The position numbers and the translations under genes were made by a program. Source: Mobula birostris (taxonomy: Eukaryota). From it: DNA of 64,000 nt. Below the pieces are notes generated by a model. The model was not told the DNA's origin. It was given only the letters and a program-made list of their open reading frames with translations, and searched no databases. Of the stretch, positions 7,321 to 59,985 are shown in pieces; within the stretch, counting starts at the first letter, position 1, and every line of letters starts with the position of its first letter. The stretch covers positions 44,564,935-44,628,934 of the forward strand of contig NC_092376.1 in the NCBI RefSeq assembly GCF_030028105.1, written 5' to 3'.

Positions 7321-7350
7321 TTTTCTCTCTTTACTGCTATTAATACTCAG
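7321..7350 (+). promoter_or_regulatory. SACS: Splice acceptor of the SACS terminal exon (phase 1)
   Basis: Polypyrimidine tract ttttctctctttactgct, then taatactcAG|gt cga ctc tgt aca caa ctg cag, in frame with the 3846-aa ORF. Confidence 0.9.
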
Positions 7351-10300: not shown

Positions 10301-13300
10301 TATTGCAATCAAGAAAATCTTATGTTCATCAAAAGCTGTGACCACACCCATGAATATTTTAAAGGAGGCAGCAAAGTTGATGAAAACACTTGCCAATACA
10401 AGACAGCTTCCTTCTGAAGCGCCTCGGTGTGCCTGCATAGTGCAAATAGTGGTGCATGAATTTCTTCAGGTATTCCAAAGGATAGTTGATCTTCAGTCAC
10501 CTCTGTTCAGACTTCCAGATGATGGAGATTTCTTGGATTTTTCAGCAAAGGTAGCACACAGCAGGAAGGGAAGTGAAGAGGAACCCCCTGAAAAAATGAC
10601 TGAATCCACAACGTGGCTTATATGTTCATGCATGGATACTGAAGAAGCACTGATGTTTTCACTGCAGGAAAGTGGACGGAGATTGGGACTTGTCCCTTGT
10701 GGTGCTGTTGGTGTTCTGCTATCTGAAACAGAAGACAAAAAATGGAGCATCAAGACAAACGGTAGTGCTTACGGGGAAGTGTTCTGTTATCTGCCTTTGA
10801 GAATCAAAACAGGATTACCAGTGCACATCAATGGCTGCTTTGCAGTTTCCTCCAATCGGAAAGAAATCTGGAAAACAGATACTAAAGGCAGGTGGAACAC
10901 CATCTTCATGAGGCATGTGATAGTTCAGGCATATTTGGAAGCACTTGCTGTATTGCGGGACATGGCTGTTAATGCAGAGCTTGTTGATTACAACTATTAC
11001 ACACTATGGCCTGATATTACCTTGGTTCATGATGACTTTGCTGTGGTGTGGCAAGGTCTTTATGAGGACATAGCCAAAGGAAGAGGAAACAAGCTGACAG
11101 AGGTCTTCTCAGATGGAACTTCCTGGGTTTCCATCAAAAGCATAAGGTTCTTGGATGATACTTTGCTTCGTAGACCAGTCGTTGGGCCTTTGGCTTTTAG
11201 GATTCTCTTGCAGTTCCTCAAAAAGGCTGAGCCTCAACCACTGTGTGCTGTGGAACTTCCACCTTGGGTTAGAGCTGGCTTTGAAGAAGCAGGCTGCAAG
11301 AATATATTACTGGAAAATACATTTTCTGAGAAGCAGTTTTTTACAGAGGCATTTTTCCCATATATTGAAGAGATAGAGGCTGAGCTTCGTGATCCATTAA
11401 TGCTTTACATTCTCGATGAAAAGGTGTTGGAGCTTTCTGGGCTGCTGCGTACAACCTGTTGTATTCCATCGTCAGGAGAACAGCAACTGTTATCTGTTCC
11501 TTCAAGACTCATTCATCCTGAGGGTCGAGTTGCTAAGCTCTATGACATTAGTGATGGGAGATTCCCTTGTGGAACTACACAAGACTACCTGAACCCAGTC
11601 CGTCTAGTAAAGCTCGTACAACTTGGCATGATCAAGGATGATATATCCTGGGAAGATATACTGGAACGAGCGATGTCTGTGGCAGCACTAAATGAAAGTG
11701 ATCATGCAGCAGCCTGCCTCCGGAGCAGCATCATACTCAGTTTAATTGATGAGAAATTAAAGTATCGGGACCACAGAGCTAAAGACTTTGCTGTGAAATT
11801 CCAGTCTGTACCTTTCCTTCCTTTCCTTAAAAAGCCTCCAGGTTTCTCATTACATTGGAAAGGAAATGATTTTCAACCTGAAACTCTATTTTCAGCTAAG
11901 GAGGTGTACGCACTTGAGTACCAGGAGATAGTTTGTCTTCTGCAGCCGATTCTAAATGAAAATCCTCCCAGTAAAGGGTGTGGTACCCTGTCATCGAGTG
12001 TTAAAGATTTTTTGGGGTTGTTAAAGAAGCCACCTATTCTTGTAGTGTTAGAACAGCTGAAGAAAGTAGCCACTGGCTTTGATGGCATTACTCTTTGCCA
12101 AGAGAACATAACAAATGCTTGTTACAAATATCTTCATGAAGCCATGATGAAGAATGAAGGTGCAAAAGTGCAGATCAATGGGGAACTTGAAAATTTTGCC
12201 TTTGTTCTGGTTGAGAACACTTACGTTGAGTCAGCGAAGGTTGCCTTCCACTTGAATTTTGATGCAACTCCCTACCTTTACCAGCTTCCAAACAAGTATA
12301 GGAACAATTTCCGTGAATTCTTTGAAAAGCTGGGAGTTCAATCCTCATTCACAGTTGAAGACTTTGCATCAGTCCTTCAGGTCTTAAAAACTGAATGTGA
12401 TCCTGAATCACTAAGTGAAAATAATTTTCAGCTTTGCCGAAGAATCATTAGTGAAGGAGTCTGGGGTCTCATTAGGGAGAAAAATCGAGATTACTGCAAG
12501 CGAAAATATGGAACCCTTTTGTTACCAGATGGTGATGGATTTCTTGTTCCAGCTAAATCTTTGTGCTACAATGATTGTCCTTGGATTAGAGTGCGCGATA
12601 AGAGTGTGAAATATTGTCACCCTGATATTCCAAGAGAGGTGGCTGTTAAGCTGGGGGCATTACCAAAACGTCATAAAGCCCTAGAGCGCTATGCTTCCAA
12701 TATTTGTTTCAGTACCCTTGGCAGTGAATTTGGACAGAAAGAGAAACTGACCAGTAGGATTAAAAGCATTCTCAATGCGTATCCTTCTGAGAAAGAAATG
12801 CTAAAGGAGTTGCTTCAAAATGCAGATGATGCAAAAGCCACAGAAATCTATTTTATATTTGATCCCAGGGAGCATCCAGGAGATCGAATCTTTGATGAGA
12901 AGTGGGGACCCCTCCAAGGTCCTGCAGTTTGTGTGTACAATAACCAACCCTTCACAGAAGATGATATTAGAGGGATCCAGAACCTGGGAAGAGGGACAAA
13001 GGAAGGGAATCCTGGCAAGACTGGGCAATATGGAATCGGATTTAATTCTGTGTATCACATAACCGACTGCCCGGCATTTATTTCTGACAACGACGTCCTC
13101 TGTATTTTTGATCCCCATGCTAAGTATGCACCCGGATCTACCAATGTCAGCCCTGGAAGGATGTTCAGAGATTTGGATTCAGACTTCAGAAATCAGTTTC
13201 ATGATGTATTGAGTCCGTTTTTAGGTAACCTCTTCAAACTGGAAAATGCTACAATGTTTAGGTTTCCAATACGAAATGCAGAGATGGCCAAAATATCTGA

Positions 13301-16300
13301 AATCTGTCAAGTCCCTGTGTCAGATCAGATGGTCCAAAATCTTTTGGACAAATTGCGTAGCGATGGAGCTGAGCTCCTAATGTTTTTAAATCACATGGAG
13401 AAGATTTCCATTTGTGATATTGAAAAGACAACAGGGGAACTGAATGTTCTATACTCGGTGAAAGCCAAAATCACAGATGCTGACAGGCTGAAACGGAAGC
13501 AATTCCATGCCTCTGTGCTTGATAGTGTAAATAAAAGAAAACAGCTCAGCCAGATACCAGTTCAACAGATCACTTATGCTATGGACATTGAAGATTCTGA
13601 AGGCAACCTTACAACATGGTTGGTCTGCAACAGGTCAGGTTTCTCAAACATGGAGAAAGTTTCAAAGTCTGTTATTTCAGCTCATAAAAATGAAGACATC
13701 ACGCTTTTCCCTCGAGGAGGTGTTGCTGCCTGCGTTAGTCATAATTACAAAAAGCCTCACAGAGCTTTCTGCTTTCTGCCTTTGTCACTAGAAACGGGTT
13801 TACCTGTGCACGTAAATGGACACTTTGCTTTGGATTCAGCAAGGAGGAATTTATGGCGGGATGACAATGGAGTTGGGGTACGCAGTGACTGGAACAATAA
13901 CCTCATGACTACCTTAATCGCTCCTGCCTACGTGGAACTGCTGGTACAGGTACGGAAGCGCTACTTTCTCGGTTCTGACCCAACAATAACCGTCTTGCAA
14001 AACACACCCATTCATGTTATGAAGGATTCTTTAAAAAAATTTCTGACATTCTTTGCAGCCAACAAGCAGGACATACAGCCGGATTGGCATTGCCTTGTGA
14101 GATCCGTATATTGTTGTCTTCATGACGATCTCAAGCGTCTTCTTCCAGTAGTCAGGATACCAAATGCAGACAGTGGAGAACTGCACCCTACAATTTTTAT
14201 TAGCTGGGTGAATACATCAACAGCTAATAGAAACCGGTCGTTCTTTGATAATTTGCTTCAGGATGAGCTGCAGCACATGAAAAGTACAGAATACAACATT
14301 GCAGTACGAAAGACGATTGCTGAAAACGTTTACAGGCTCAGAAATTTATTACTTGATATAGGATTCAACTTGGTTTATAGCTCGGATGAGACTTCCAACA
14401 TTTATCTCTGTTTTCAGGAAGCTGGGATTCCAGTCCACTATGTAACGCCTGCTGATGTCCGAGAGTTCTTGCACACGTTTACATCTCCAGATTCAAGCTG
14501 CCACCTTGGAAAGTTGCCCTGTCGACTACATCAGACTGCACTAAAGCTCTTTCACAATTTGAAACTTCTGGTTGATTACTGCTTCAAAGATTCCGAAGAG
14601 AATGAGATTAGGGTGGAAGGGCTTCCTCTTCTCATTACTCTGGACAATGTCGTGCAGGCTTTTGATGCTAAGCGTCCAAAGTTTCTGACAACTTACCATG
14701 AGTTGATCCCATCCCGTAAAGAGCTATTCATGAACACACTTTATATGAAGTACAATAATATCTTGCTCAACTGCGGTGTTGCAAAAGCTTTTGATATAAA
14801 CAGCTTTGCCGAGCTGCTCTCATTTGTGCTTCCCAGAGATTATAGAACGAGATTTGTTGTGAAATGGAAAGAAAGTTTTGTAAGTGAACCGTGGTTGAAA
14901 AGCTTCTGGCATTTCATCAGTGATGCGATTTCTGTGAAGGAAGGTGAAGCCGAGATTGGGCCAACATTTGAAATGATTGTTGAGACATTGAAGGACTGGG
15001 CTTTGTTGCCTGGTACAAAATTTACTATTTCCAGCAACAAAATGCTGGTACCAGAATGTGATGTTCTAGTACCACTTAGTTTAATGAATGTTTCAATTTT
15101 CCCAACTGGCCAAAATGAAAAGGTTTTCAGTACGCTGATGAAAGCTGGCTGTATTCAATTCGCATTGAATAAAACTTGCTCTAAAGAGAACATATTAGTC
15201 TCACAGTTGGTTTTACACTTGGCAAATGTTGAGAGTCCAACTAGCATTCTGAAGGCTCTCGATTATATGAACCGAACATCAACACTAAGGACAAATAATC
15301 TGAATGACAATGACTTTGATGTGCTTCTGATGTATTTCAATTCCAACTTGAATCAGCTGACTGCTCAAGAAGATGGTAAGATTCTGAAGTCATTGCCTTG
15401 TTACAAGGCCATAAATGGCACCTATATCAGCATCTTAAAATATGGGTCTTGCTTTGTTCTAAGAAAAAACATTCCTCTAGCTGAAATTGAAAGATGGACA
15501 CTGTCTTCTAACTTTGCATTTCTTGCAGACAACCCTCAATTGAAGGACTTGTATAGTTTCCTCAACTGTGTTCCTGTGGATGACCTTGAGGTGTATTTGA
15601 AGCACTTGCTGCCAAAGTTTGATAATCTGACTACTGTGGCTAAGATCGAGCATTTGGTGCATCTGAAGAAAAAGCTTTCCAACCTGGATGAAGGTACGCC
15701 AATCAGACAGCAATTGTTTGATAAACTTGAAGGCCTTGCAATCATTCCTGATTCGTTCAACCGCCTAAAGCCTACAAAGTGTTTCTATGACAGGACAGAA
15801 AATGTTTTTAAAGCAATGTTGCCAGAGAATGCTTTCATTTCTCAAGACTTTTTTCGACGACTGGAACAAGTTGAAAAACCCAAGAACCGTGCTGCATTCC
15901 TCACGTCATGGATAACGTTCTTTCGAAACATTGGACTGAATTACACAGTCTCCCAGCAACAGCTGCTGCAGTTTGCTAAGGACATTGGAGTTCGAGCTCA
16001 GGCAGAGAATTGGTCCAGAGAAACAATACAGAACAAAGTTGACGTTCTATTAAATCATATATTTCAAGAGAGGACTGATCTGTTTACCGGAACCTTTCTT
16101 AAAGACCTCTCGTTGATTTCATTCATCTACCCAGAACGCGCTTCAGCAGAGCTCTTGAAACTTCATCCTCAGTATAAGGAACTAAATGGGACTCTCTCTC
16201 TAATATGTTTCAGTGGAGCTCAAGTCAATCCCAAATTCAAGCAGACTGACGTTATGCAATTATTGTGGACATCATGCCCGGTTCTTCCAGAAAGGGCAAC

Positions 16301-18914
16301 ACCTTTGAGTATTAAGGAGCAGAAAGATAGCAGACTTGATAAACAGCAACAGGTAGAGGAACTTCTAGCAATGTTAAATGTTAGCCTGGATCCCCCACCA
16401 GACAAAGTCATTAGTAACTGCAAAAACATCTGCAACATTCCATCTCCAGAAGATGATATGATTAAAACAAGAGTCAAAGTGTTGCAGAGTACTTATGAAT
16501 TTCTGAATGCAGAAAAGAAAGATTTCCGCTCCCATCTTCGAGGTGTTGCATTTGTTATGGTCGAAGACGGCCGGAAGCTACTTAAACCTGAAGAGGTTGT
16601 CATAAATCTTGAAAATGAGTCTGATTTTAAACCTTACCTGTACAAACTGCCTTTGGAACTTGGCAGCTTCCACCAGTTGTTTAAACTTCTGGGCACAGAA
16701 GATAGCATTTCGACAAAGCAGTATGTCGAGGTACTAGGGCGTATATTTAAAATATCAGAAGGGAAGCAACTGGAACCGAATGAAATGCGAACTGTAAAAA
16801 GGGCTGTGTCCGGACTTTTTAAGAGTCTTCAAAGTGAACCGGTAAGGGTCAGAATTGACTTTGAAAGTCTACGTGAGATAGGTCTTTATCTCCCAAGTCA
16901 TGACGGGAGATTAACAAAGTCAAGCATATTGGTTTTTGATGATGCACCACATTATAAAAGTCGAATGCAGGGGAATGTGGGGATGCTAATGCTGGTGGAT
17001 CTCAGCCAGTGTTATTTGGGAAAAGACCATTCATTTCATACAAAGTTAATCATGCTGCTCCCTTCAAAATTTAGGCCAAGGTTGCTCAGCGGAATCTTGG
17101 AAGAGATCTTAGATGAAGAAACGCCAAAAATATGTCAATTTGGGGCACTTTGTTCACTACAGGGCCGTCTTCAGTTGCTGCTTTCCTCAGAACAGTTTAT
17201 CACAGGCCTTATCCGGATTATGAAGCATGAAAATGACAATGCCTATTTGGCAAACGAAGAAAAAGCTAATCGACTTTGCAAGGCGTTGCGTGAAGGTCTA
17301 AAAGTTTCCTGCTTTGAGAAACTACAGACAAGCCTTCGAATAAAAGGGTGTAGTACCATTCCTCATAGTAAAAGTGAAACGTTGGCATTCCTGAAGAGAT
17401 ATGGAAATGCAGTGATACACTTGTATATCCAGCATGCAGAGGGCAAGGATATTAATTTTCTATTGGCCCTGGCAATGACCCTTAAAACTGCCACTGACAA
17501 CTTGATTTTGGATACTTCCTACCTAATAGCCATGCTTGGCTGCAATGACATCTACAGAATCAATGAAAAACTGGACAACTTAGGTGTGAAGTATGATTCT
17601 TCTACTGAACGTTCAAAACTTGAACTGCCTTTACCAGGCACACCTATACCAGCTGAAATCCATTACTTACTCCTCATGGATCCCTTGAATGTATTCTACC
17701 CAGGTGAATATGTTGGGTATCTTGTCGATGCTGAAGGTGGTGATATATATGGATCATACCAGCCAACGTACACTTATGCCATCATTGTGCAAGAAGTAGA
17801 ACGTGAAGGAGCTGATCATTCCAGCTTTCTGGGAAAGTATTTCCAGATTGACATCGGCTACAGTGAGTACAAAATTGTAAGTTCTCTAGATCTGTACAAG
17901 TTTTCAAGACCTGATGAAAGTTCGCAAGGGAGAGATAGTACACCCACCACTCCTACAAGTCCCACTGAATGCCTTTCTCCAGGCCTCAGGCCGATACCTC
18001 CCCATTTTCCTGGAAGGGAAAGCCATCGAGCACCAACTTCAAAGCACCAGTCTCCAAAGAAGATTAAGCTACATGCCCTGCCTGAAATCCTTCGAGAGGT
18101 CACCTTGGTACTGGAACAGGCTTGGAGACTTCCTGAGTCAGAAAGGAAAAAGATAATACGACGGTTATACCTCAAGTGGCATCCTGATAAAAATGCAGAT
18201 AATCTGGAAATAGCAACTGAAGTCTTCAAGCATGTACAGAATGAAATCAATAGGCTAGAAAAGCAAGGGATAGGCGGTTCTGAATTCAGTACTGACCGAG
18301 CTTCTAGAAGAACCTACTCTTCTTCATCTGCTCGCTTCCAATCAGAAAAGTTTTCATTTCAGAGATTTTACACATCCTGGAATCAGGAAGCAACTAGCCA
18401 TAAATCTGACAGGCAGCATTTTAAAGCCAGATTTGCTTCAGCTCCAGGTTCGTCTCATTCTTCACGGTTTTTTGTGCCCCCAACCTTCAAAACTGTGGGC
18501 AACCCCATTGAGGCACGAAGATGGCTCAGGCAAGCACGAGCAAACTTCTCTGCAGCTAGAAATGACCTGCACAAAAATGCTAATGAGTGGGTATGTTTCA
18601 AGTGCTACTTGGCAGCAAAGCTTGCTTTGATATCAGCTGAATATGCAGTTAAGGGGAAGTCTGACAAAGACGTCAAACCAGCTGCACTTGCACATAAAGT
18701 GGAGGAATACAGCCAAAGTCTGGCAGGACTTGCAGCAGATGTAAATACTCTGGAAGCATATGGTGTGGATGGATTGAGAACCCGGTATCCAGATCTCCTC
18801 CCCTTTCCTCTAATTCCAAATGATAAATTCACTACGGATGTTGCAATGAGAGTGATGGAATGCACTGCACGGATCATCATAAAACTTGAAAACTTCATTC
18901 AACAAAAATTGTAA
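7351..18914 (+). CDS. SACS: Sacsin, giant terminal coding exon (partial CDS; upstream exons lie outside the window)
   Basis: Uninterrupted ORF starting (G)[22 protein letters not shown]. It has two HSP90-like sacsin-repeat ATPase modules ([40 protein letters not shown] ~9520-9870; [31 protein letters not shown] ~12730-13060), a DnaJ domain with HPD (~18180) and a C-terminal HEPN domain ([23 protein letters not shown]). TAA stop at 18912-18914. Confidence 0.98.
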
Positions 18915-29885: not shown

Positions 29886-31729
29886 TGAGATTCTTGATAT
29901 TCAGTTATGGTGTTTATTGACTCTGGGATAATCTATTATTTCTATGGCTTCATAGTTTTTCCCTTCTTCTTCAGTTGCTTTCGTTATTGATTTCACTTGA
30001 ACCTGAATTACTTGATTATGATACTGGAGAGTTTTCAACATCTAATGCCACTAGAGTAACATTCAATTTAAATGTTCTGTTTCCTACATAGTGCTGGATC
30101 AGCTGATAGTATTAGTTGACAAATTGCATTTTCTCTTTGCCAATCTTTATCAGTTCTTCCCTGATATTGTTTTGGCATTTCTCAACTTTTCAGCAAAAAT
30201 AGAAAAACTAATTGAACATTTTCTTTGGTCTGGAGTAATTCAATCTTGTTTTTTTTACTTTTTCTTGTGTCCATGGAGCAACTTCCTGAACAACTGGATG
30301 TGAGTGAAAATTGGTATTTTTCATCTGAGTGGTAGGTATCAGGAAGAAGAAATTGATTCTTTAACACAAACACCAAATAGCCCTCAGTATGGTGGTCACC
30401 AAAGTGGGTTTCTTTCCATGTGGTGCTATATCTCGATGTGCCCGATTTCCTTGTCCAATCATTTACTAGCATCAATACACTGTTCATCAGAACTTTTCTA
30501 TTCAACACTTATAGTTGTTGCTCATATTTCTTCCGAAGAAAATTGGTCAGGTGTGCTTGTTCCAACTAAAGTGTACTTATGAAGCAAATCTGCTTTTCAG
30601 GGTGTTTGTTTGGTGTCTAATAAGGCTAGACAGCCCATTCCCCAACTTTTAAGGCACCATATTTGGAATTATGACAGGAAATTGAAGTGGAGTTATTGTA
30701 GACTAATGTTTCAGATGTGAATCTGCCAAATTAATGAGCGATTGTTTTCTTACAACTTTCACAACCCAGATGATCAGGAAAATATTTATTGAAGGAACCT
30801 TCAGTTACTACTTTGTTTTCTTTCAGAGCTCCTTCAGCTTTTTTAGGCTTTTTGTTGACATAGGCTTGGATTTGCATGATGTTGATTTCTGTTTGTTTGC
30901 ACCATAGAATCAATACACAAAAATAGTTCTGTACCACTTTTCAATACAATATTTATAAATGAATGCCATGATCAATTCTTTGCCTAAGCACACATTTTAA
31001 AAGTGGAAATGTACAAATTAGCATGCTGTTACTGTTTCACTTTTGTAACATTTTCAGATCTTCATTCTGGAAAAGAAATCATGGTAGTCTTGTGATGGGT
31101 GAACTGAACAGTGCCTACTCTGTGTCACTGAAATGATACTCATGCTGCACTTCATCTGAATTGGCAAGCTGCCCAGACATTCCAGTGTTGGCGGATAGAT
31201 GGATATTTGGGTCGTGATATCATGTAGCTCTAACATACGTAAGTAAGTTTCGCTTATAATACTGGTGTCTCTTTTCACTGACCCTAATTCTAAAATTACA
31301 TTTTTCTTTGTTTCCATGAAGTTGATTTCTGAAAAGGCTACCCAGTTGCTGTGATATGAAACTGGACAGGTTAGTGCAACATGACAGGCAAGTGCTCAGC
31401 CATCAGCTCTTCAATGTGAAAACTGAGTACTTGAATGCCTACAGCATATTTACAACGGTAGGCTGCACACACTGACAGAGAAAAAATACTCCTGAAAAGA
31501 TACATTTATTCCAATCTGCCAGGACATGCTGAAAATGAGCAGCATCAAATGCATGTATAGATTGATAACTACTGCTCAAATTTACCTCTGAGCTCTGCTG
31601 AGCAAATACAGCTACAGCCTGTACACAGCTACACAGCTTCAATAATCCTTGATATTACACTGCTTTTCAGTGAGATTCCATGCAGTGTGAAGGTGTTTCC
31701 TACTTTTCTTTGCCACAAAGGACATTTCC

Positions 31730-33645
31730 TCAAATATAGCAGGCTCTTGCAAGAAACATAAGGTTGTGATAGTAGGAGATTTTAACTTTCCACATATTGA
31801 CTGGGACTCCCATATTGTAAAAGGACGAGATGGGATAGAGTTTGTCAAATCTGTTCAGGAAAGTTTCCTTAATCAGTACATGGAAGTCCCAATGAGAAAG
31901 TGTGTGATACTTGATCTGCTTTAGGGAATGACAGGACTGGTGATAAAAGTTTGTGTAGGGGATCACTTTACAACTAGTGATCACAATGCCATTAGTTTCA
32001 AAGTAAATATGCAAAAAAACAGGTCTGGTTTTTGGATTGAAATTCTAAATTGAAGAAAGACCAATTTTGATGGTATCAGAAGTATCTGGCAAGTGCCGAT
32101 TCGGATAGTCCTTCCAGATGAGGCAAAAGTTCGGCTGTGAGTCTGTTGGGGTCGCATATTGTGTCCAGCGCTCCCGGTGTGGCTTCCTGTGTATCGGTGA
32201 GACCTGACGTAGATTGGAAGATTGCTTCGTCAAGCACCTATGCTTCATCCTCAAGAAAAAGCGGGACCTCCCAGTGGCCACTCATTTTAATTCCACTTCC
32301 CATTTCCATTCTGATACGTCTATCCATGGCCTCCTCCACTGTCGTGATGAGGACACACTTAGGTTGGAGAAACAACACCTTACATTCACGTTTGGTAGCC
32401 TCCAACCCGATGACACAAACATCAATTTCTCAAACTTCCGGTAATGCACCCCACCTCTCCCCCACCCCCCACTTCACCATTTCCCATCCCCTTTTCCCTC
32501 TCTCACCTTATCTCCTTGCCCGCCCATCGCCTCCCTCTAGTGCTCCTCCTCCCTCTTCCTACTTCTGTGTCCTTCTCTCTCTTTCACCAATCAACATTGT
32601 AGCTCCTTACTTCATCCCTCTGCCTTCAGATTTCACCTATCACCTTGCGTTCCTCTCTCCCCTCCCCCACCTTTTAAATCTACTCCTCAGCTTCTTTTTT
32701 CTCCAGTCCTGCTGAAGGGTTTTGGCCCAAAACGCCAACTGTACTTTTTTTTTTTATATAGATTCTGCCTGCCCTGCTGAGTTCCTCCGGCATTTTGTGT
32801 ATGTTGTTTGGATTTCCAGCATCTGCAGATTTGCGAATTGGGACAGGTTGTTTTCTGGAAAGGTGTATTTGGCAGGTGAAATTTTTGAGAGCACAAAGCT
32901 TGTATGTGCCTTTCAGAATAAAAGGTAAAGATAACAAGGAACCTTAGTTTCTGAGAGATATTGAGGCCCTGGTTAAGAAAATGGGGATGCATTGCAGGTA
33001 TAGGCAAGTAGGAACAAGTGAGCTGCTTATGGAGTGTAAGAAATACAGGAAAACACCTAAGAAAGAAATCAGGAGGGCTGAAAGAAGGCATGTGGTTGCC
33101 TTACCAGACAAGGTTATAAAAAATCCTGAGGTCCTCGACAGCAATATTAAGAGTAAAAGGACTGCAAGGGACAAAATTGGTCCTCTGGAAGATCAGAGTG
33201 GTAATCAATGTGTGGAGCCAAAAGGTGGGGGAGATCTTAAATGAAATTTTTGCATATGTATTTACTCAGGAGATACATACACACACAGTCTATAGGAGTG
33301 AGGCAAAACGGCATCAACTTCATGGACTCTATACAAATTACAGAGGACGAGCTGTTTGCTGTCTGGAGTCTAATTATGGCAGATAAAACACCTGAGACTG
33401 ACAAGGTGTTCCCTCAGACCCTGTGGAGGAGTGCAGAAATTGCTGGGACTCTGGCAGAGATATTTAAAACATCCTTAGTGACAGGAGTTTTACCAGAGGA
33501 TTAGAAGATAGTCAATATTGTTCCACTGTTTAAGAAAAGCTCTAAAATTAAACCAGGAAATTATAGCTGCTGATCCTTACATCAGTCATGGGAAAGTTAT
33601 TGGAAGGTATTCCAAATGACCGGATATGTGAGTATTTGGACAGAC
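31730..33645 (+). mobile_element. CR1 ORF2 fragment interrupted by a Penelope-like element
   Basis: gtaggagattttaactttccacatattgactgg (VGDFNFPHIDW); ORFs 32981-33504 (KIGPLEDQSG, TGVLPED). Confidence 0.85.
32103..32833 (+). mobile_element. Penelope-like element 3' part (GIY-YIG endonuclease plus terminal repeat)
   Basis: CESVGV..YCVQRSRCGFLCIGET*RRLEDCFVKHL..LPVATHFN..RLEKQHL; pyrimidine-rich tail; terminal repeat with decayed hammerhead cagtcctgctgaagggttttggcccaaaacg. Confidence 0.85.
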
Positions 33646-36180: not shown

Positions 36181-37192
36181 CTCTATACATCTCTATCATC
36201 TGAGTGGACAGAGTCAGAGTGGTGATATTGAGCTTTAGCTTTACATGGACCAGCAAGAGAGGCTTCAGTCAGAGAAAACAAATATAAAAGCTCTAGGTTA
36301 AGTTTTTTTTATCCTTTTCTTCTTTATCCCTACTCAGCTAGGACAGTAGAGATGTCAGGCAGGATAGATGAATTGATCTCTTGTGGGATGTGGGAAGGCA
36401 GGGAGACCTCCAGTGTCCCTGATGACTGCAACTGTGAGAAGTACATCCAGCTGCAGCTCCTAACACTCCATGTTGAGGAGTTAGAGCTGGAACTGGATGA
36501 ACTCTGGATCATTCGGGAGGCTGAAGGGGTGATAGATAGGACATATAGAGAGGTAGTTACACCCGAGGTGCAGGAAGCAGGAAACTGGGTGACAGGCAGG
36601 AAGGGCAAAGGGGTTAAGGAGCCAGTGCAGAGTACCCCTGTGGCCATCTCCCTCAACAACAGATATATCACCTTGGATACTGTTGGGGGTGGGGTGGGGT
36701 TCATCTATCAGAGGAATGTGGCAGTGGTTGGGTCTCTGGAACTGAGTCTGGCTCCTTGACTCAGAAGGGAAGGTGGGACAAGGGGCATGCTGTGATGATA
36801 GGGTATCCGCTAGTTAGGGGAATGGACAGGAGGTTCCGTGGTCAAGAATGAGATTCCCGGATGGTACGTTGCCTCCTGGGTGCCAGGGTCCGGGACATCT
36901 CAGATTGAATCCTCAGCATTCTTAAGTGGGAGGTTGTGGTCCATGTAGGTAACATGTGTAGGACTAGTGATGAGGTTCTGCATCAGGAGTTCAGGGAGTT
37001 AGGTGCTAAGTTAAAGGTCAGAACATCCAGGATAGTGATCTCAGGACTGCCACCCATGCCATGTGCTAGTGAGGCTAGAACTAAGAAGATTATACAGTTT
37101 GATATGTACCTAAGGAGTTTGTGTAGGAGGGAGAGCATAAGGTTTTTGGATCATTGGGCTCCCTTCAGGGAAAGTGGGACCTGTACAGAAGG

Positions 37193-37600
37193 CCCAATGC
37201 CCTGCTAATGCCCCGCCTCCCCCTCGTACCCCATCCGTTATTTATATACACACATTCTTTCTCTCACTCTCCTTTTTCTCCCTCTGTCCCTCTGACTATA
37301 CCCCTTGCCCATCCTCTGGGATTTCGCCCCACTCCCCTTTTCCTTCTCCCTGGGCCTCCTGTCCCATGATCCTCTCGTATCCCTTTTGCCAATCACCTGT
37401 CCAGCTCTTGGCTCCATCCCTCTCCCTCCTGTCTTCTCCTATCATTTTGGATCTCCCCCCCCCCCCCACTTTCAAATCTCTTACTAGCTCTTCCTTCAGT
37501 TAGTCCTGATGAAGGGTCTCGGCCTGAAACGTTGACTGTACCTCTTCCTAGAGATGCTGCCTGACCTGCTGCGTTCACCAGCAACTTTGATGTGTGTTGC
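37193..37600 (+). mobile_element. Penelope-like element 3' tail with terminal repeat
   Basis: Pyrimidine-rich tail closely similar to 44535-44935, ending in the hammerhead-bearing repeat. Confidence 0.8.
37501..37538 (+). ncRNA. Minimal type I hammerhead ribozyme motif (intact core)
   Basis: Stem I AGUC (37502-37505) pairs with GACU (37534-37537); core CUGAUGA (37506-37512); stem II AGG-gucucgg-CCU; GAAA (37526-37529); minimal palindromic stem III ACGU; NUH site GUU, cleavage after 37533. Confidence 0.75.
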
Positions 37601-37845
37601 CTGTACAGAAGGGACAGTTTACACATGAACTAGAGGGGTTCTATTCTCCTGGCAGGAAGGTTTGTTAATGCTGCACGGTGGGGTTTAAATTGATGTTGCA
37701 GGAGGATGGGAACCAGAATGCCAGTGGAGAGGTTGTGGAGGCAAATGTTGGTAAGACCTCAGACAAAGTCAGGAATCAAAAAGTTGAACATGGTGTGACT
37801 AGTGTGCTGAGCTGTGTATATTTCAATGCAAGAGGTATCACAGGA

Positions 37846-38070
37846 AACAAGAGAAAATCTGCAGATGCTGGAAATCAGAGCAACACACACAAAATGCTGG
37901 AGGAGCTCAGCAGGCCAGGCAACATCTCTGGGAAAATAAGTACAGTCGACATTTCGAGCCGAAACCCTTCCACCAGTCTGGAGAAAAAGGGCTGAGGAGT
38001 AGATTTGAAAGGTGGGGGAGGGGAGAGAGAACCGCCAGGTGATAGTTGAAACTTGGAGGGGGAGGGATGA
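37846..38070 (-). repeat. Penelope-associated repeat and tail
   Basis: aaatctgcagatgctggaaatc..acacacaaaatgctggaggagctcagcaggccaggc..cagtcgacatttcgagccgaaacccttc. Confidence 0.8.
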
Positions 38071-40264
38071 AGCAATGGTGTATGCGCACAATTCACACAT
38101 TCTATTGCAACATATATCAAGTTAAATATTAAAATATTAAATATCTAATGCCATAGCAACAGGCTGTAATTGATAGTATGCTCATATAGTTAAGAATGCT
38201 GCTTGTGGAGTAATCACTCCTGCTGACTTTGCTAAGCTATTTGTATATTCCCAGGGATGCAAAGTTATTCTATCCTTTTAATTCATCATACGCACTTAAC
38301 AGCTTCTTCCTTAATAAATGGTACACTCTGTGGAATTTGCCTCTGACTCCTTGTATCAGAAGATTCAAAACTAGTTGAAAATTTTTGGAAAAGGTTGTGA
38401 ATACTGCTAACTGATCCTTGAACAGGAGATTGTATTTGGACCTGTTCCTCAGCAATTTACATTTCCAGTTCATTCATACTATTCTGTATAAACTCTGAAG
38501 GCATATTTATGCCTGTGGTGCATGGTCTAGTAAACAGAGCTGACGAATATTGTTTATTGTCCACTTTCCTTTGCAGTTCTCCAGCGTTCATATGTTCAGT
38601 TTTGGTTAATTGAAAGATCTATTATTCCCATTTGCAATATCATTTTCTTTCAGAACAGATTCAACCTCTTTCGAAAATTTCCAACTTTAATTCTATCAAT
38701 TGTAAATGTGATTGAACCTTGTCACTGGGCTGAAGTAACTCAATTTTTTTTTAACATACCGTTATTTGTATGTCAATGGAGCATATTCCAGAGTGAAAAT
38801 TTGTAGTTTTCACCAATGTGTATTTTTCATCTGAGTGGTTGGTATCAGGGAGAAAGAATTTATTCTTTAACTCAGACACCAAATACTTCTCAGTATCATG
38901 CCTATGATATTGAGATTCTTTCCACATGGTGCCACTTCTTGATGTATCTGATTTTTTTTGTCTGAATATTTTGTTCTAACTGAAGTGTACTTGCTGAGCA
39001 AATCCACCCTTAAGGGTGTTTGTCTGGGGTTGATGATGCTAGACAGACCTTTTCCCCACCTTTTAAAGCACTATGTTCAGAAGTGTTATGGGAAATTGTT
39101 CATGTAGATTAATTTTTCAGATGTGACTGTACTGAATGAATGAGCGGATGTTTTCTTGCAACATTCACAACCCAGATGATCAGGAAAAGATTTCTCAAAG
39201 GAACCTTCTCTTAAGTCTTTGTTTTCATTCAGAGCTTCTTTGGCTTTTCAGATTTTGTATTAATAAAGGCTTGAGTTGCATGATGTTGTTTTCTGTTTGG
39301 TTGAAACACAATAATTAATTCTATACTACTTCCCAATACGTTCAGTACATCTAAAAGAAACTGCCACAGTCAAGTCTTTGCCATAAGCACACATTTTAAA
39401 AGTGCAAGTTTACAAGTGAGTCGGCTGTTACCATTTCACCTCTGTAAAATATTTCCAGATATTCATTTAGTAACTGTAATCTTATGGTGGGTGAACTGAA
39501 TAGTGCCTGTTCTGTGTCACTAGAATGATGCTGATTCTGCACCTCATCTGAATTGGCAAGCTGCCCAGACATTCCAATGTTGGTGGATAGATGGAAATTT
39601 AGGTCAGAATATCATGTAGCTGTAACAATAGATTCACTTTTAAAGCTGTTGTATCTTTTCACTATTTTGTTTCCATGAAGTTGATTTCTGAAAAGGCTAC
39701 CCAACTGCTGTGATATGGAACTTGACAGGTTAGTCCAACATGACAGGCAAGTGATCAGCCATCAGTCCTTCAATGTGAAAACTGAACACTTGAATGCCTA
39801 CAGCATATTTACAATGGTAGGCTGCACACACTGACAGAGAAAAAATATTCCTGAAAAGATAAATTTATTCCAATCTGACAGGGCACAATGGAAACTGACA
39901 GGGATTCTGAACGAGTGGGCAGCATCAGATGCATATACAGATGAATAACAATAGCTCAAGTTCACTCTGAGCTCTGCTGAACAAACACAGCTACAGCCTG
40001 AACACAGCTATAAAAATTCAACCATCTTTGATATTACACTGTTTTCCAATGAGTTTCCACATAGTATGAAGAAGTTTCCCAATTTTCCTCAGCAGAACCT
40101 TTTGCCTGATGTTTTACCCACTCACTTTAACTTTCTCTAACTAACTTGTAGCGCCTTCATCCCAAACGTTAACAACTTACTTTCTTAGCAATCTTCATGT
40201 CATCAGCTAATTTAACACCAACATCTTTGGCCCCTTCATCCAACTCAGTTGTGTAACCGTAGAA

Positions 40265-43739: not shown

Positions 43740-46035
43740 TGACTGTTCTTTTTTTTGTCCAGCTTCAAGGTGCAATTAATTAAAGTGGGCCTGGTCAATC
43801 CTCTTTTAATTGCTCTTGTGTGTCATCCACCAAAAATACATACTCGATTTTTGGACTTCCCCTCAAACACTATGCCCAGACTGAGTTCTGATTTTTGGTG
43901 ATTTTAATATTCATGTTTGTTGTCCCGCTAAGCCTCTCGTAAGTGATTTTATGCATCCGGTTGAGTCTTTTAATCTTGCTCTGCTTATTACTGGACCCAC
44001 TCAGAAGCAAGGCCATACACTGGGATGTGGCATTAAAATGTGTGGCCACTGGAGATCCTGCTTCCTCTGGTGGACAGAGCATTGGTGTTCAGTGAAGTGG
44101 TCTCCCAGTCTGCGTCGGGTCTCACCAATATATAGAAGGCCACACCGGACACAGTATATCACACCAGCCCTTACACTTCCTCCCTCACCACCATTCAGGG
44201 CCCCAGACAGTCCTTCTAGGTGAGGCAACACTTCACCTATGAATCGGCTGGTGTGATATACTGCATCCGGTGCTCCCGATGCGGCCTTCTATATATTGGT
44301 GAGACCCAACGCAGATTGGGAGACTGCGTCACTGAACACCTACGCTCCAGAGGAAGCAGGATCTCCCCATGGCCACACATTTTAATTCCACGTTCCATTC
44401 GCATTCCGATATGTCAATCCACAGCCTCCTCTACCGTCGAGATAAAGCCACACTCAGGTTGGAGGAACAGCACCTTATATTCCATCTGGGTAGCCTCCAA
44501 CCTGATGGCATGAACATTGACTTCTCTAACTTCCGCTAATGCCCCTCCTCCCCTTCTTACCCCATCCCTATTTTATTTATTTATTTATTTTCCTCTCTTC
44601 TCCTCTCATATTAACTCCTTGTCTGTTCTCCATCTTCCGCTGGTGCTCCCCTCCCCCTTTCTTTCTTCCAAGGCCTTCCATCCCATGATACTCCCCCTTC
44701 TCCAGCCTTGTATCCCCTTTTTCTAATCAACTTCCCAGCTCTTGGCTTCATCCCCTCCCCCTCCTGTCTTCTCCTATCATTTTGGATCTCCCCTCCCCCT
44801 CCCACTTTCAAATCTCTTACTATCTCTTTTTTCAATTAGTCCTGACAAAAGGTTCTCGACCCAAAACATCGAATATACTTCTTCCTATAGATGCTGCCTG
44901 GCCTGCTGCGTTCCACCAGCATTTTGTGTGTGTTCCCATTCTTTTCTCTATATATATGCCTCCCCTCGGCCAAATCATTCAAAAATATGACATTTCTTTT
45001 CACTGTTATGCTGACAACGCACAGCTTTATCTCCCCCGAAACCAAACGACCAGTCAAATCTAGCCAGCCTCATGAACTGCCTTGAGGACATAAAGTGTTG
45101 GATGGCACAAAACTTCTTACAGCTGAATGAAGGCAAGTCTGAAGTTGTCCTATTTGGCCCCCCTGACTCCATCAAAGTGATTACCAACAGTCTTGGTAAC
45201 CTGTCCACCCTTTCCAAACCCCATGTCAAAAACCTTGGTGTGATACTTGATTCCACCTTTAAGTTTGACAAGCAAGTTAATGCAGTAGTAAAAGCCAGCT
45301 TTTTCCAGCTTCATACTATTGCCAAAATCAAGCAGTTTCTCTCTTTCAAAGATCTCGAGAAAGTCATCCACGCCCTTATATCTTCCCGCTTGGACTACTC
45401 CAACTCCCTGTATACTGGGATTAGTCAGTCGCCCCTGTCCCGCCTGCAACTGATCCAGAATGCCGCAGCCAGGCTCCTGATAGGTGCCCGGAAGAAGGAC
45501 CATATTACTCCTATCCTGGCCTCCCTCCTCTGGCTGCCAGTACAGTTCAGAATTGATTTTAAGATCCTCCTGTTTGTTTATAAAGCCCTAAATGGGCTGC
45601 CCTCCCCCATATCACAGACCTTCTAACCCCTTATTCTACTTCTAGGTCCCTCAGGTTGGCTGACTTGGGGCTCCTGGCTGTCCCGCGATCAAAATTTAAG
45701 TTCAAGGGTGACTGCACCTTTGCTATTGTAGCCCCTAGACAGTGGAACAGCATTCCCCTCCCAATCAGATCTTCCTCCTCCATCGACTCTTTTAAATCCA
45801 GGCTCAAAACTTACTTTTGTTCACTAGCGTTTGAATCCTCCTGATGTGGCTGATTTTTGGCTTGTGCCTAGGCCCTTGTGTTGTGTCTTTTGTGCCTATA
45901 AGCTGTTTGCTTTGTTGGTTAAATCTGTGTTTCTTGTATTTGTGATTTTAGCTATCTGCTCTGATCTGTACAGCACTTTGGTCAACTTGGGTTGTTTTTA
46001 AATGTGCTATATAAATAAATTTGACTTGACTTGAC
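43740..46035 (+). mobile_element. L2-clade LINE (endonuclease 43740-43995; RT C-terminus 44935-45840) interrupted by a Penelope-like element
   Basis: GDFNIHV..GPTQKQGHTL; HCYADNAQLY; CLEDIKCWMAQNFLQLNEGKSEV..SRLDYSNSL..HITPILASLLWLP; (ttgac)n tail at 46021-46035. Confidence 0.9.
44020..44935 (+). mobile_element. Penelope-like element with an inverted 5' segment
   Basis: Plus strand FTYESAGVIYCIRCSRCGLLYIGETQRRLGD (GIY-YIG); minus 44020-44170 is an inverted copy GVIYCVRCGLLYIGETRRRLGDHFTEH; terminal repeat at 44836-44935. Confidence 0.9.
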
Positions 46036-55839: not shown

Positions 55840-58105
55840 CAGGTACACCTCTCAATGGGTGAGCATCTGGGGGACAGTAACCACCACTCCCTGGCCTTTA
55901 GCATTATCATGGAAAAGGATAGAATCAGAGAGGACAGGAAAATTTTTAATTGGGGAAGGTCAAGTTATGAGGCTATAAGGCTAGAACTTGCGGGTGTGAA
56001 TTGGGATAAAGTTTTTGCAGGGAAATGTACTATGGACATGTGGTCGATGTTTACGGATCTCTTGCAGGATGTTAGGGATAAATTTGTCCTGGTGAGGAAG
56101 ATAAAGAATGGTAGGACGAAGGAACCATGGGTGACAAGTGAGATGGAGAATCTAGTCAGGTGGAAGAAGGCAGCATAGATGAGGTTTAGGAAGCAAAGAT
56201 CAGATGGGTCTATTGAGGAATATAGGGTAGCAAGAAAGGAGCTTAAGAAGGGGCTGAGGAGAACAAGAAGGGGGCATGAGAAGGCCTTGGTGAGTAGGGT
56301 AAAGGAAAACCCCAAGGCATTCTTCAATTATGTGAAGAACAAAAGGATGACAGGAGTGAAGATAGGACCGATTAGAGATAAAGATGAGAAGATGAGCCTG
56401 GAGGCTGTGGAAGTGCGCAAGGTCCTCAATGAATGCTTCTCTTCAGTATTCACCAATGAAAGGGAACTTGATGACGGTGAGGAGAATATGAGTGAGGTTG
56501 ATGTTCTGGAGCATGTTGATATTAAGGGAGAGAAGGTGTTGGAGTTCTTAAAATACAATAGGACGGCTAGGTCCCCGGGGCCTGACAGAATATTCCCAGG
56601 CTGCTTCACGAGGCGAGGGAAGAGATTGCTGAGCTTCTGACTAGGATCCTTATGTCCTCGTTGTCCACGGGAATGGTACCGGAGGATTGGAGGGAGGCGA
56701 GTGTTGTCCCTTTGTTCAAAAAAGGTAGTAGGGATAGTCTGGGTAATTATAGACCAGTAAGCCTTACGTCTGTGGTGGGAAAGCTGTTGGAAAAGATTAT
56801 TAGAGGTAGGATCTATGGGCATTTAGAGAATCATGGTCTGATCAAGGACAGTCAGCAGGGCTTTATGAAGGGCAGGTCATGTCAAACAAGCCTGATAGAG
56901 TTCTTTGCGGAGGTGACCATGCATATAGATGAGGGTAGTGCAGTGGATGTGATCTACATGGATTTTAGTAAGGCATTTGACAAGGTTCCACACGGTAGGC
57001 TTATTCAGAAAGTTAGAAGGTATGGGATCCAGGGAAGTTTGGCCAGGTGGATTCAGAATTGGCTTACCTGCAGAAAGCAGAGGGTCATGGTGGAGGGAGT
57101 ACATTTGGATTGGAGAGTTGTGACTAGTGGTGTCCCACAAGGATTGGTTCTGGGACCTCTACTTTTCCTGATTTTTATTAATGACCTGGATGTGGGGGTA
57201 GAAGGGTGGGTTAGCAAGTTTGCAGATGACACAAAATTGGTGGTGTTATGGATAGTGTAGAGGATTGTTGAAGATTCCAGAGAGGCATTGATAAGATGCA
57301 GAACTGGGCTGAGAAGTGGCAGATGGAGTTCAACCTGGAGAAGTGTGAGGTGTTACACTTTGGAAGGGCAAACTCCAAGGCAGAGTACAAAGTAAGTGGC
57401 AGGATACTTGGAAGTGTGGAGGAACAGAGGGATCTGGGGGTACATGTCCACAGATTCCTGAAAGTTGCCTCACAGGTAGATAGGGTAGTTAAAAGAGCTT
57501 ATGGAGTGTTAGCTTTCATGTCGAGAGATAGAGTTTAAGAGTCGCGGGGTAATGATGCAGCTCTATAAAACTCTGGTTAGGCCACACTTGGAGTACTGTG
57601 TCCAGTTCTGGTCGCCTCACTATAGGAAGGATGTGGAAGCATTGGAAAGGGTACAGAGGAGATTTACCAGGATGCTGCCTGGTTTAGAGAGTATGCATTA
57701 TGATCAGAGATTAAGGGAACTAGGGCTTTACTCTTTGGAGAGAAGGTGGATGAGAGGAGACATGATAGAGGTGTTCAAGATATTAAGAGGAATAGATAGA
57801 GTGGATAGCCAGCGCTTTTTCCCCAGGGCACCACTGCTCAATACAAGAGGACATGGCTTTAAGGTAAGGGGTGGGAAGTTCAAGGGGGATATTAGAGGAA
57901 GGTTTTTTACTCAGAGAGTGGTTGATGCGTGGAATGCACTGCCTGAGTCAGTGGTGGAGGCAGATACACTAGTGAAACTTAAGAGACTACTAGACAGGTA
58001 TATGGAGGAATTTAAGGTAGGGGGTTATATGGGAGGCAGGGTTTAAGGGTCAGCAGAACATTGTGGGCCAAAGGGCCTGTACAGTGCTGTACTATTCTAT
58101 GTTCA
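55840..58105 (+). mobile_element. CR1 LINE, near-complete ORF2 with frameshifts
   Basis: Collinear ORFs 55723-58046: [60 protein letters not shown]; tattctatgttc tail. Confidence 0.95.
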
Positions 58106-58244: not shown

Positions 58245-59985
58245 CCTTCTATCCCTCTTATACACCTCTATCAGGTCACCTCTCATCCTCTGTCGGTCCA
58301 AGGAGAAAAGGCTGAGTTCACTCAACCTGTTTTCATAAGGCATGCTCCCCAATCCAGACAACATCCTTGTAAATCTCCTCTGCACCCTTTCTCTGGCTTC
58401 CACATCCTTCCTGTAGTGAGGTGACCAGGACTGAGCACAGTACTCCAAGTGGGGTCTGACTAGGGTCCTATATAGCTGCAACATTACCTCTCGGCTCCTA
58501 AATTCAGTTCCACGATTGATGAAGGCCAATACACCGTATGCCTTCTTAACCACAGAGTCAATCTGCACAGCTGTTTTGAGTGTCCTATGGACTCGGAACC
58601 CAAGATCCCTCTGATCCTCCACACTGCCAAGAGTCTTACCATTAATACTATAGTCTGCCATCATATTTGACCTATCAAAATGAACCACTCACACTTACCT
58701 GGGTTGAACTCCATCTGCCACTTCTCAGCCCAGTCTTGCATCCTATCGATGTCCCACTGTAACCTCTGACAGTCCTCCATACTCTTCACAACACCCCTAA
58801 CCTTTGTGTCATCAGCAAACTTTCTAACCCATCCCTTCACTTCCTCATCCAGGTCATTTACAAAAATCACAAAGAGTAAAGGTTCCAGAACAGATCCCTG
58901 AGGCACACCACTGGTCACCGACCTCCGTGCAGAATATGACCCATCTACAACCACTCTTTGCCTTCTGTGGGCAAGCCAGTTCTGGATCCACAAAGCAATA
59001 TACCCTTGGATCCCATGCCTCCCTACTTTCTCAATAAGCCTTGCATGGGGTACCTTATCAAATGCCTTGCTGAAATCCATGTACACTACATCTACTGCTC
59101 TTCCTTCATCAATGTGTTTAGTCACATCCTGAAAAAATTCAATCAGGCTCATAAGGCATGACTTGCCCTTGACAAAGCCATGCTGACTGTTCCTAATCAT
59201 ATTATACCTCTCCAAATGTTCATAAATACTGCCTCTCAGGATTTTCTCCATCAACTTACCAACCACTGAAGTAAGACTCACTGGTCTATAATTTCCTGGG
59301 CTATCTCTACTCCCTTTCTTGAATAAGGGAACAACATCCACAACCCTCCAATCCTCCGGAACCTCTCCCGTCCCCATTGACGATGCAAAGATCATCGCCA
59401 GAGACTCAGCAATCTCCTCCTTCATCTCCCACAGTAGCCTGGGGTACATCTTATCCGGTCCTGGTGACTTATCCAACTTGATGCTTTCCAAAAGCTCCAG
59501 CACATCTTCTTTCTTAATATCTACATGCTCCAACTTTTCAGTCCGCTGCAAGTCATCAGTACAATCTCCAAGATCCTTTTCCATAGTGAATACTGAAGTA
59601 AAATATTCATTAAGTACCTCTGCTATTTCCTCCGGTTTCATACTCATTTTCCCACTGTCACACTTGATAGGTCCTATTCTTTCACATCTTATCCTCTTGC
59701 TCTTTACATACTTATAGAATGCTTTGGGATTTTCTTTAATCCTGCCCGCCAAGGTCTTCTCATGGCCCCTTCTGGCTCTCCTAATTTCCTTCTTAAGGTC
59801 CTTCCTGTTAGTCTTATAATCTTCTAGATCTCTAACATTACCTGGCTCTCTGAACCTTTCGTAAGCTCTTTACTTCTTGTAGATTTACAACAGCCTTTGT
59901 ACAGCATGGTACCTGTACCCTACCATAACTTCCCTGTCTCATTGGAATGTACCAATGCAGAACTCCACACTGATATCCCCTGAAC
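58245..59985 (-). mobile_element. CR1 LINE ORF2 (RT)
   Basis: 363-aa ORF 58661-59752 with full RT motifs; C-terminal ORF 58236-58688. Confidence 0.95.

Follow-up and report, generated by a model that had tools for sequence, protein, structure and literature searches.

Minimal type I hammerhead ribozymes (min-HHRs) were described as a class in Penelope-like elements (PLEs) in 2014 by Cervera and De la Peña (PMC4209133). According to this source, the class is characterised by an extra base between positions 9 and 10.1, a G10.1-C11.1 pair (a consensus above 80% among min-HHRs) and a palindromic 15.2-16.2 segment, and in tests of metazoan examples the monomer was inactive while the activity of the dimer and trimer was low. 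The fastest cleavage triplets are given as GUC and GUA in PMC3138052. For the Poseidon element of the anole (PAc, Anolis carolinensis), PMC11167929 reports no cleavage without protein, insertion in vitro that needs no cleavage, and an absence of RNA-seq reads with an end at the cut site; it also traces an optional tail of 30-40 bp to two reverse-transcription start sites. Within the PLEs, a zinc-finger-like CX2-5CxxC linker between the reverse transcriptase (RT) and endonuclease domains is characteristic of Neptune and Nematis, two of the clades (PMC8557442). Finally, hammerhead retrozymes have been reported in the one chondrichthyan sampled in the corresponding study (10.64898/2026.07.22.740005), and these may include the ray family considered here.

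The locus that we describe lies in a stretch of 64,000 nucleotides of Mobula birostris DNA, referred to below as the window, and its features are collected in Table 1. With the metazoan PLE motifs of PMC4209133 it shares the type I form, the complete core, the additional base that follows position 9, a 4-bp stem II with a 4-nt loop, the palindromic C15.2-G16.2 without a loop III, and a short stem I, as well as a position behind an RT-GIY-YIG ORF and occurrence mostly as single motifs in truncated copies. The closest example there is the Neptune motif of Acropora digitifera (Fig. S3 of that publication), which has identical segment lengths and, by our count, the same letter at 19 of the 28 positions from C3 to H17. 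The window motif differs from those of PMC4209133 in its host, a cartilaginous fish (Table S1 and Fig. S3 of that source include no member of this group), in having U17, and in having G10.1.U11.1 in place of the usual G-C, a feature common to most of the contigs aligned below. In addition, 300 nt separate stop codon and core here, as against roughly 100-120 nt in the distant relatives L001-L006 (see below). With PAc (PMC11167929) the family has in common a hammerhead in the terminal repeat and copies with or without the 30-40-bp tail, but that element belongs to the Poseidon clade, has an intact ORF and tandem loci and was tested in vitro, whereas the window family is of Neptune type. The animal non-LTR retrozymes (10.64898/2026.07.22.740005) likewise combine a type I hammerhead with a short, PLE-derived, non-coding unit of a few hundred bases; they differ in forming tandem arrays of at least two units, whereas the window copy is single and its siblings continue into an ORF. 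A search of the literature, which left most subscription journals and Repbase outside its reach, brought up no paper on this ray family.

Table 1 Features of the hammerhead locus and of its sibling copies in the window (positions are those of the window).
Feature	Position	Strand	Remarks
Minimal type I hammerhead motif (min-HHR)	37501-37538	+	Sequence reading, descriptor, folding, covariance model
Stem I	37501-37505 with 37534-37538	+	5 bp: 4 Watson-Crick and a terminal U.G
Core C3 U4 G5 A6 U7 G8 A9	37506-37512	+	
Bulged A9.1	37513	+	Unpaired base between 9 and 10.1
Stem II	37514-37517 with 37522-37525	+	4 pairs, 4-nt loop
Core G12 A13 A14 A15.1	37526-37529	+	
Palindromic ACGU	37529-37532	+	C15.2 G16.2 = 37530-37531; U16.1 = 37532
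H17 = U	37533	+	Predicted cut 3' of 37533
Competing hairpin (predicted)	37488-37517	+	-9.6 kcal/mol; the CUGAUGA core and the 5' strand of stem II are taken up in pairs with the pyrimidine-rich 5' flank
3' end (pseudo-LTR region), truncated on its 5' side, of a Neptune-type Penelope-like element	37193-37599	+	407 bp
Target-site duplication, left copy	37180-37192	+	13 bp
Target-site duplication, right copy	37600-37612	+	13 bp
Decayed GDSL-esterase-like ORF, host of the insertion	36909-37191	+	Weak OSK and Lipase_GDSL_2 matches, below cut-off
Longer sibling	44160-44934	+	Linker and GIY-YIG endonuclease remnant, then 3' region with decayed hammerhead
Second sibling	32109-32815	+	GIY-YIG remnant, 3' region, optional tail; decayed hammerhead 32704-32741

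The hammerhead motif and its stems

The motif is a genuine minimal hammerhead sequence in the tail of a Penelope-like element. An initial annotation of this DNA had claimed its letters and core, a stem I of 4-5 bp, a palindromic ACGU and a cut after 37533, and all of these are borne out on reading the window: the full set of 11 core letters is present, the topology is that of type I, with stem I within 3-5 bp and stem II closed, and since H17 is a U, cleavage is predicted on its 3' side. A minimal-hammerhead descriptor (stem I of at least 4 and stem II of at least 3 pairs) finds this locus and no other in the 64 kb, while of 500 dinucleotide-shuffled versions of the window, 7 contain any locus at all. 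When a covariance model is made from six motifs found in distant relatives, with no window sequence included, the motif comes top among the 20 matches listed in the window (28.1 bits, rough E 2.9e-6), and the decayed sibling copies rank next after it. The annotation had also proposed an Infernal search as a check; with the Rfam families this matched no hammerhead family, neither in the whole window, where no Rfam family reached its gathering score, nor among the three matches with E of 10 or less in 37100-38000, and we count the outcome as uninformative. The stability of the 38-mer is ordinary relative to its own shuffles (z -0.45), and the ACGU self-duplex is predicted to be worth only -1.7 kcal/mol, implying no stable helix III in the monomer.

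Only in the case of stem II does the reading need revision. The initial annotation was right that a closed stem is present, but gave it three pairs (A-U, G-C, G-C, with a 7-nt loop), whereas both folding and the relatives favour an unpaired A followed by four pairs (G.U, G-C, G-C, U.G) and a 4-nt loop. In the predicted fold of the 38-mer, the four pairs that follow the bulged A have pair probabilities of 0.77-0.86, as against 0.08 for the 3-bp register, although as isolated hairpins the two lie within 0.3 kcal/mol of one another. At the five distant loci found by protein (see below) the base before GAAA is C, so that the 3-bp register would there involve an A-C mismatch, while the bulged register is kept; the 3-bp stem with its 7-nt loop is thus the less likely register. 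The bulged form is also the one published for the class (PMC4209133). The resulting 10.1-11.1 pair is a G.U wobble in this copy, with C at 24-34% of the aligned depth. As G10.1.U11.1 occurs in 8 of the 56 motifs of Fig. S3 of PMC4209133 (counted by eye), it is a known variant and does not exclude the motif from the class.

Support for both stems comes from distant relatives. Six loci (L001-L006), found by protein alone in two prokaryote assemblies (G001 and G002), encode relatives of the element's ORF; these loci are likely to represent contamination by animal host DNA. In five of them (L001-L004 and L006) the ORF is followed, at a distance of about 100-120 nt, by a motif that is laid out in the same way, and there is none directly behind the matched, incomplete stretch of ORF in L005. 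A pattern search of the two assemblies gave 43 matches (42 in G001 and one in G002), against none in a reversed control, and loci were retrieved for 30 of the 43. Altogether, the loci are L001-L005 and L008-L036 in G001, and L006 and L007 in G002. A separate observation concerns core position 4, which is C instead of U in 29 of the 42 matches in G001; these fall into two families with both stems intact, so that this is a core variant kept at the level of the family (examples are L001:2610-2647 and L027:1898-1941).

For the analysis of covariation, one motif from each of the six families was combined with the window motif, one variant of the L001 family being dropped as non-independent. The first three pairs of stem I were found paired in 21 of 21 cases (1 of 5040 permutations was as good), as were pairs 2-4 of stem II (21 of 21; 4 of 5040 permutations); if the L001-family variant is retained, these figures become 23/24 for stem I and 24/24 for stem II. 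In the six relatives taken without the window motif, 87% of cells are paired, 7 of 9 pairs have two-sided changes, and the covariation score is reached by none of 500 shuffles, slid controls being 12-47% paired. The core and the first pair of stem II are fixed by the search pattern and therefore carry no weight as evidence, but both stems covary across the six relative families and the window motif. Separate scans of viral, metagenome and prokaryote genome contigs with the motif pattern gave no match, as did protein scans of viral contigs.

The insertion, its siblings and the wider family

The motif lies within a solitary insertion of 407 bp, at a locus where there is neither an ORF of the element nor a tandem repeat-ORF-repeat structure; nor is there any tandem array of the 407-bp unit in the 64-kb window. 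The 5' end of the insertion lies close to where the ORF of the element has its stop codon (TAA, 37206-37208), and the copy is without the optional 30-40-bp tail. In one frame, the interrupted host sequence gives ...WDLYRR on the left of the insertion and LYRRDSLHMN on the right, and the GDSL-like frame reads on across the site; we take the host sequence at 36909-37191 to be a remnant of ORF1 of a CR1-like LINE, in a window that is rich in LINE remnants. The first 11 or so nucleotides of the insertion (37193-37203) are unlike those of its siblings and share a 7-nt word with the sequence that follows shortly downstream; these junction bases possibly reflect a slip of the template during insertion.

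What ties this repeat to a Penelope-like ORF is the pair of siblings in which a GIY-YIG remnant stands directly upstream of the shared 3' region, and with this and the anatomy of the insertion the setting in a Penelope-like terminal repeat that had been proposed initially is well founded. The 3' region of the longer sibling is 74.5% identical to the 407-bp copy over 416 columns, and the GIY-YIG remnants of the two (at 44.2 and 32.1 kb) are 70-79% identical to the Mobula hypostoma protein P0002. The closest named relatives of the endonuclease are from the rays Hypanus sabinus and M. hypostoma; P0002 has 49 longer homologues, many of them ORFs of 750-950 aa, and the three full-length relatives that were scanned have RT and GIY-YIG domains, a DKG motif also being present in full-length relatives. 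A single ORF with RT and C-terminal GIY-YIG is thus found at the level of the family only. A CX4CxxC linker is present in P0001, P0002 and their relatives, and from these motifs and the likeness of the proteins the element would be assigned to the Neptune type. Copies in the window end either with or without a further segment of 30 bp, corresponding to the optional tail. In an alignment of 12 window copies, of which some rows are off-register, the present motif is the only one with a full core: none of the 11 others keeps all 11 core letters (each has 2-6 changes), and in these the core is 71% conserved as against 86% for a block downstream, as expected for dead copies.

Several other features of the window may be recorded here. 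An inverted GIY-YIG fragment (44020-44168, minus strand) lies beside the longer sibling, an arrangement typical of Penelope-like insertions. Some 260 bp downstream of the insertion is a second, older copy (37855-38075, minus strand), which belongs to another subfamily, has the tail but a broken core, and likewise lies within the LINE remnant region. An uninterrupted frame of 3856 codons at 7344-18914 (plus strand) represents sacsin's giant exon (SACS; with matches to DnaJ and HEPN), and the hammerhead motif is on the sacsin strand, 18.6 kb behind the sacsin stop codon; a search with a single motif for the last exon of a neighbouring sarcoglycan gave no match. A repeat of about 1.2 kb is present in two copies (30309-31535 and 38815-39894) that lie 8.4-8.5 kb apart and are 77-92% identical in four segments, and an inverted pair (56595-57235 and 58803-59443; 641 nt, 74%) consists of two LINE reverse-transcriptase remnants in opposite orientation.

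A wider view of the family was obtained by aligning a 601-bp stretch around the motif to sequencing contigs at 80% likeness, which gave 71,055 and 119,152 aligned contigs for two DNA runs (figures that are not copy numbers) and 6,124 and 8,477 for two runs tentatively taken to be of RNA, for which the contigs carry no information as to strand, level or ends. Differences from the window are taken from the 40 rows listed of 132, the smallest top share being about 27%. Three of these 40 fall within the motif, where C stands in place of T in 70-83% of the depth at 37510, in 81-91% at 37533 and in 24-34% at 37525. No core position is among the rows listed, so the canonical core letters appear to be in the majority, subject to the bias of the likeness filter. 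Since C predominates at 37533, the usual triplet of the family is GUC, and the GUU of this copy is likely the result of CpG decay. The same explanation had been considered for the T at 37525, but as a private change it is ruled out by C being the minority letter there; within the subfamily, a U at 11.1 is frequent.

At each edge of the motif (37502 and 37539), both DNA runs have over 1,000 contigs with loose ends, a pattern suggestive of subfamilies that have the motif in common but not its flanks. The aligned depth rises about 60-fold at 37205, near the 5' junction; such a step is to be expected in any case, because at this point of the aligned stretch the flanking repeat gives way to the insertion. 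No contig among those listed spans the locus, and the contig joints that bypass the insert probably belong to the flanking repeat in its other copies. Over the 407 bp there are about 10 majority differences among the rows listed, and the core is intact probably because the copy is young, not because the host selects for it.

Origin, predicted activity and alternative readings

By far the most credible account, in our judgement, is that the motif is the 3'-end hammerhead of a Neptune-type Penelope-like element, carried by a truncated copy of 407 bp with a 13-bp target-site duplication, and that this lone copy is likely a passive and fairly young leftover, for which weak or no cleavage is predicted. 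By analogy with published relatives, the family itself would be expected to work through an exchange of strands between the two motifs of a tandem repeat-ORF-repeat element, in which the palindromic ACGU segments of both would pair to give a 4-bp helix III and the arms of stem I would pair crosswise; cleavage of the RNA would follow on the 3' side of position 17, and the protein of the element itself would probably assist in this. As to how this copy arose, its insertion, truncation and duplication can be read directly from the letters, while the chemistry is one that we infer: the GIY-YIG endonuclease would have nicked the CR1-like remnant, and reverse transcription would have begun at the start site that yields no tail and stopped some 400 nt later, on reaching the end of the ORF. 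The copy accordingly has a single hammerhead and lacks both an ORF and a cis partner.

The initial annotation had suggested that the copy may cleave itself, most likely as a dimer; that such cleavage is likely is not supported. The copy is solitary and truncated, none of the 11 other aligned window copies keeps the core, and the flank is predicted to hide that core: with 76-420 nt of surrounding sequence included, adopting the ribozyme shape carries a predicted penalty of 6-10 kcal/mol. For the 38-mer, the double-hammerhead dimer is predicted at -10.9 kcal/mol, whereas two folded monomers come to -15.2 and the best co-fold reaches -23.5; these are nearest-neighbour energies, which leave out the tertiary core and by which active hammerheads would be penalised too. 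The published min-HHRs, inactive as monomers and weak as dimers (PMC4209133) or dependent on protein (PMC11167929), also argue against it. It must be said that shuffles of the flank hide stem I as well or better in 42 of 300 cases, so that the hiding hairpin is nothing special, and the idea of it as a selected off-switch is unsupported. Nor does U17 serve well as the mark of a dead copy, being present in 24 of the 56 motifs in Fig. S3 of PMC4209133 (counted by eye); both U17 and G10.1.U11.1 lie within the range published there, and therefore the sequence itself does not forbid cleavage. The lone copy is nonetheless probably inert.

Other readings of the locus have to be set against this one. 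That the motif is no hammerhead but a match by chance is scarcely believable: the absence of a hammerhead match in Rfam, folding that is no better than in shuffles and the lower conservation of the core in the other window copies could all be cited in its favour, but the descriptor finds so little in shuffled windows, an independent covariance model places the motif first, and distant relatives share its position and layout, with stems that covary, while the weaker conservation of the core would fit neutral, CpG-rich decay of dead copies and stems in part from off-register rows of the alignment. It is also very unlikely that the 407-bp unit is a non-autonomous element, resembling a retrozyme or a SINE, which was transcribed and moved on its own without random 5' truncation. 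Here the step in depth so close to the 5' junction might seem suggestive, as might the average of 363 bp reported for the retrozyme families of one chondrichthyan and the derivation of animal retrozymes from PLE repeats (10.64898/2026.07.22.740005). The closest sibling, however, continues upstream into the endonuclease ORF, the 5' ends of other copies vary widely, and retrozymes are defined by tandem units, of which the window holds no array.

A different question is whether a transcribed copy might work after all, pairing in trans with a transcript of its very abundant family (through 14 intermolecular pairs) or being helped by the element's protein, and so cutting any host RNA that extends through it. 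The motif does have its full core and both stems, it is on the sacsin strand, and protein-assisted cleavage has been demonstrated for the anole element (PMC11167929); moreover, the thousands of family contigs in the presumed RNA runs mean that partners in trans may exist. Even so we think it unlikely, since two monomers are predicted to be more stable than the active dimer, the surrounding sequence is predicted to hide the core, cleavage of the published dimers is poor even in cis (PMC4209133), and the triplet here is GUU as opposed to the fastest, GUC and GUA (PMC3138052). Decidedly improbable is an extension of the same idea, in which the motif family of ray genomes would be huge and transcribed, and young solitary copies in general would be completed in trans by RNA or protein of the family; host RNAs would then contain conditional cut sites by the thousand, held off until that point by U11.1 and the upstream hairpin. 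If lone copies did cut host transcripts in trans, the finding would matter, but only then. For the role of PLE hammerheads in vivo, a truncated and solitary copy such as this one adds no testability, and an intact tandem element would be the better subject. What the locus does provide is an extension of the known pairing of retroelement and ribozyme to a Neptune-type family of rays, with a hammerhead laid out as in the coral element.
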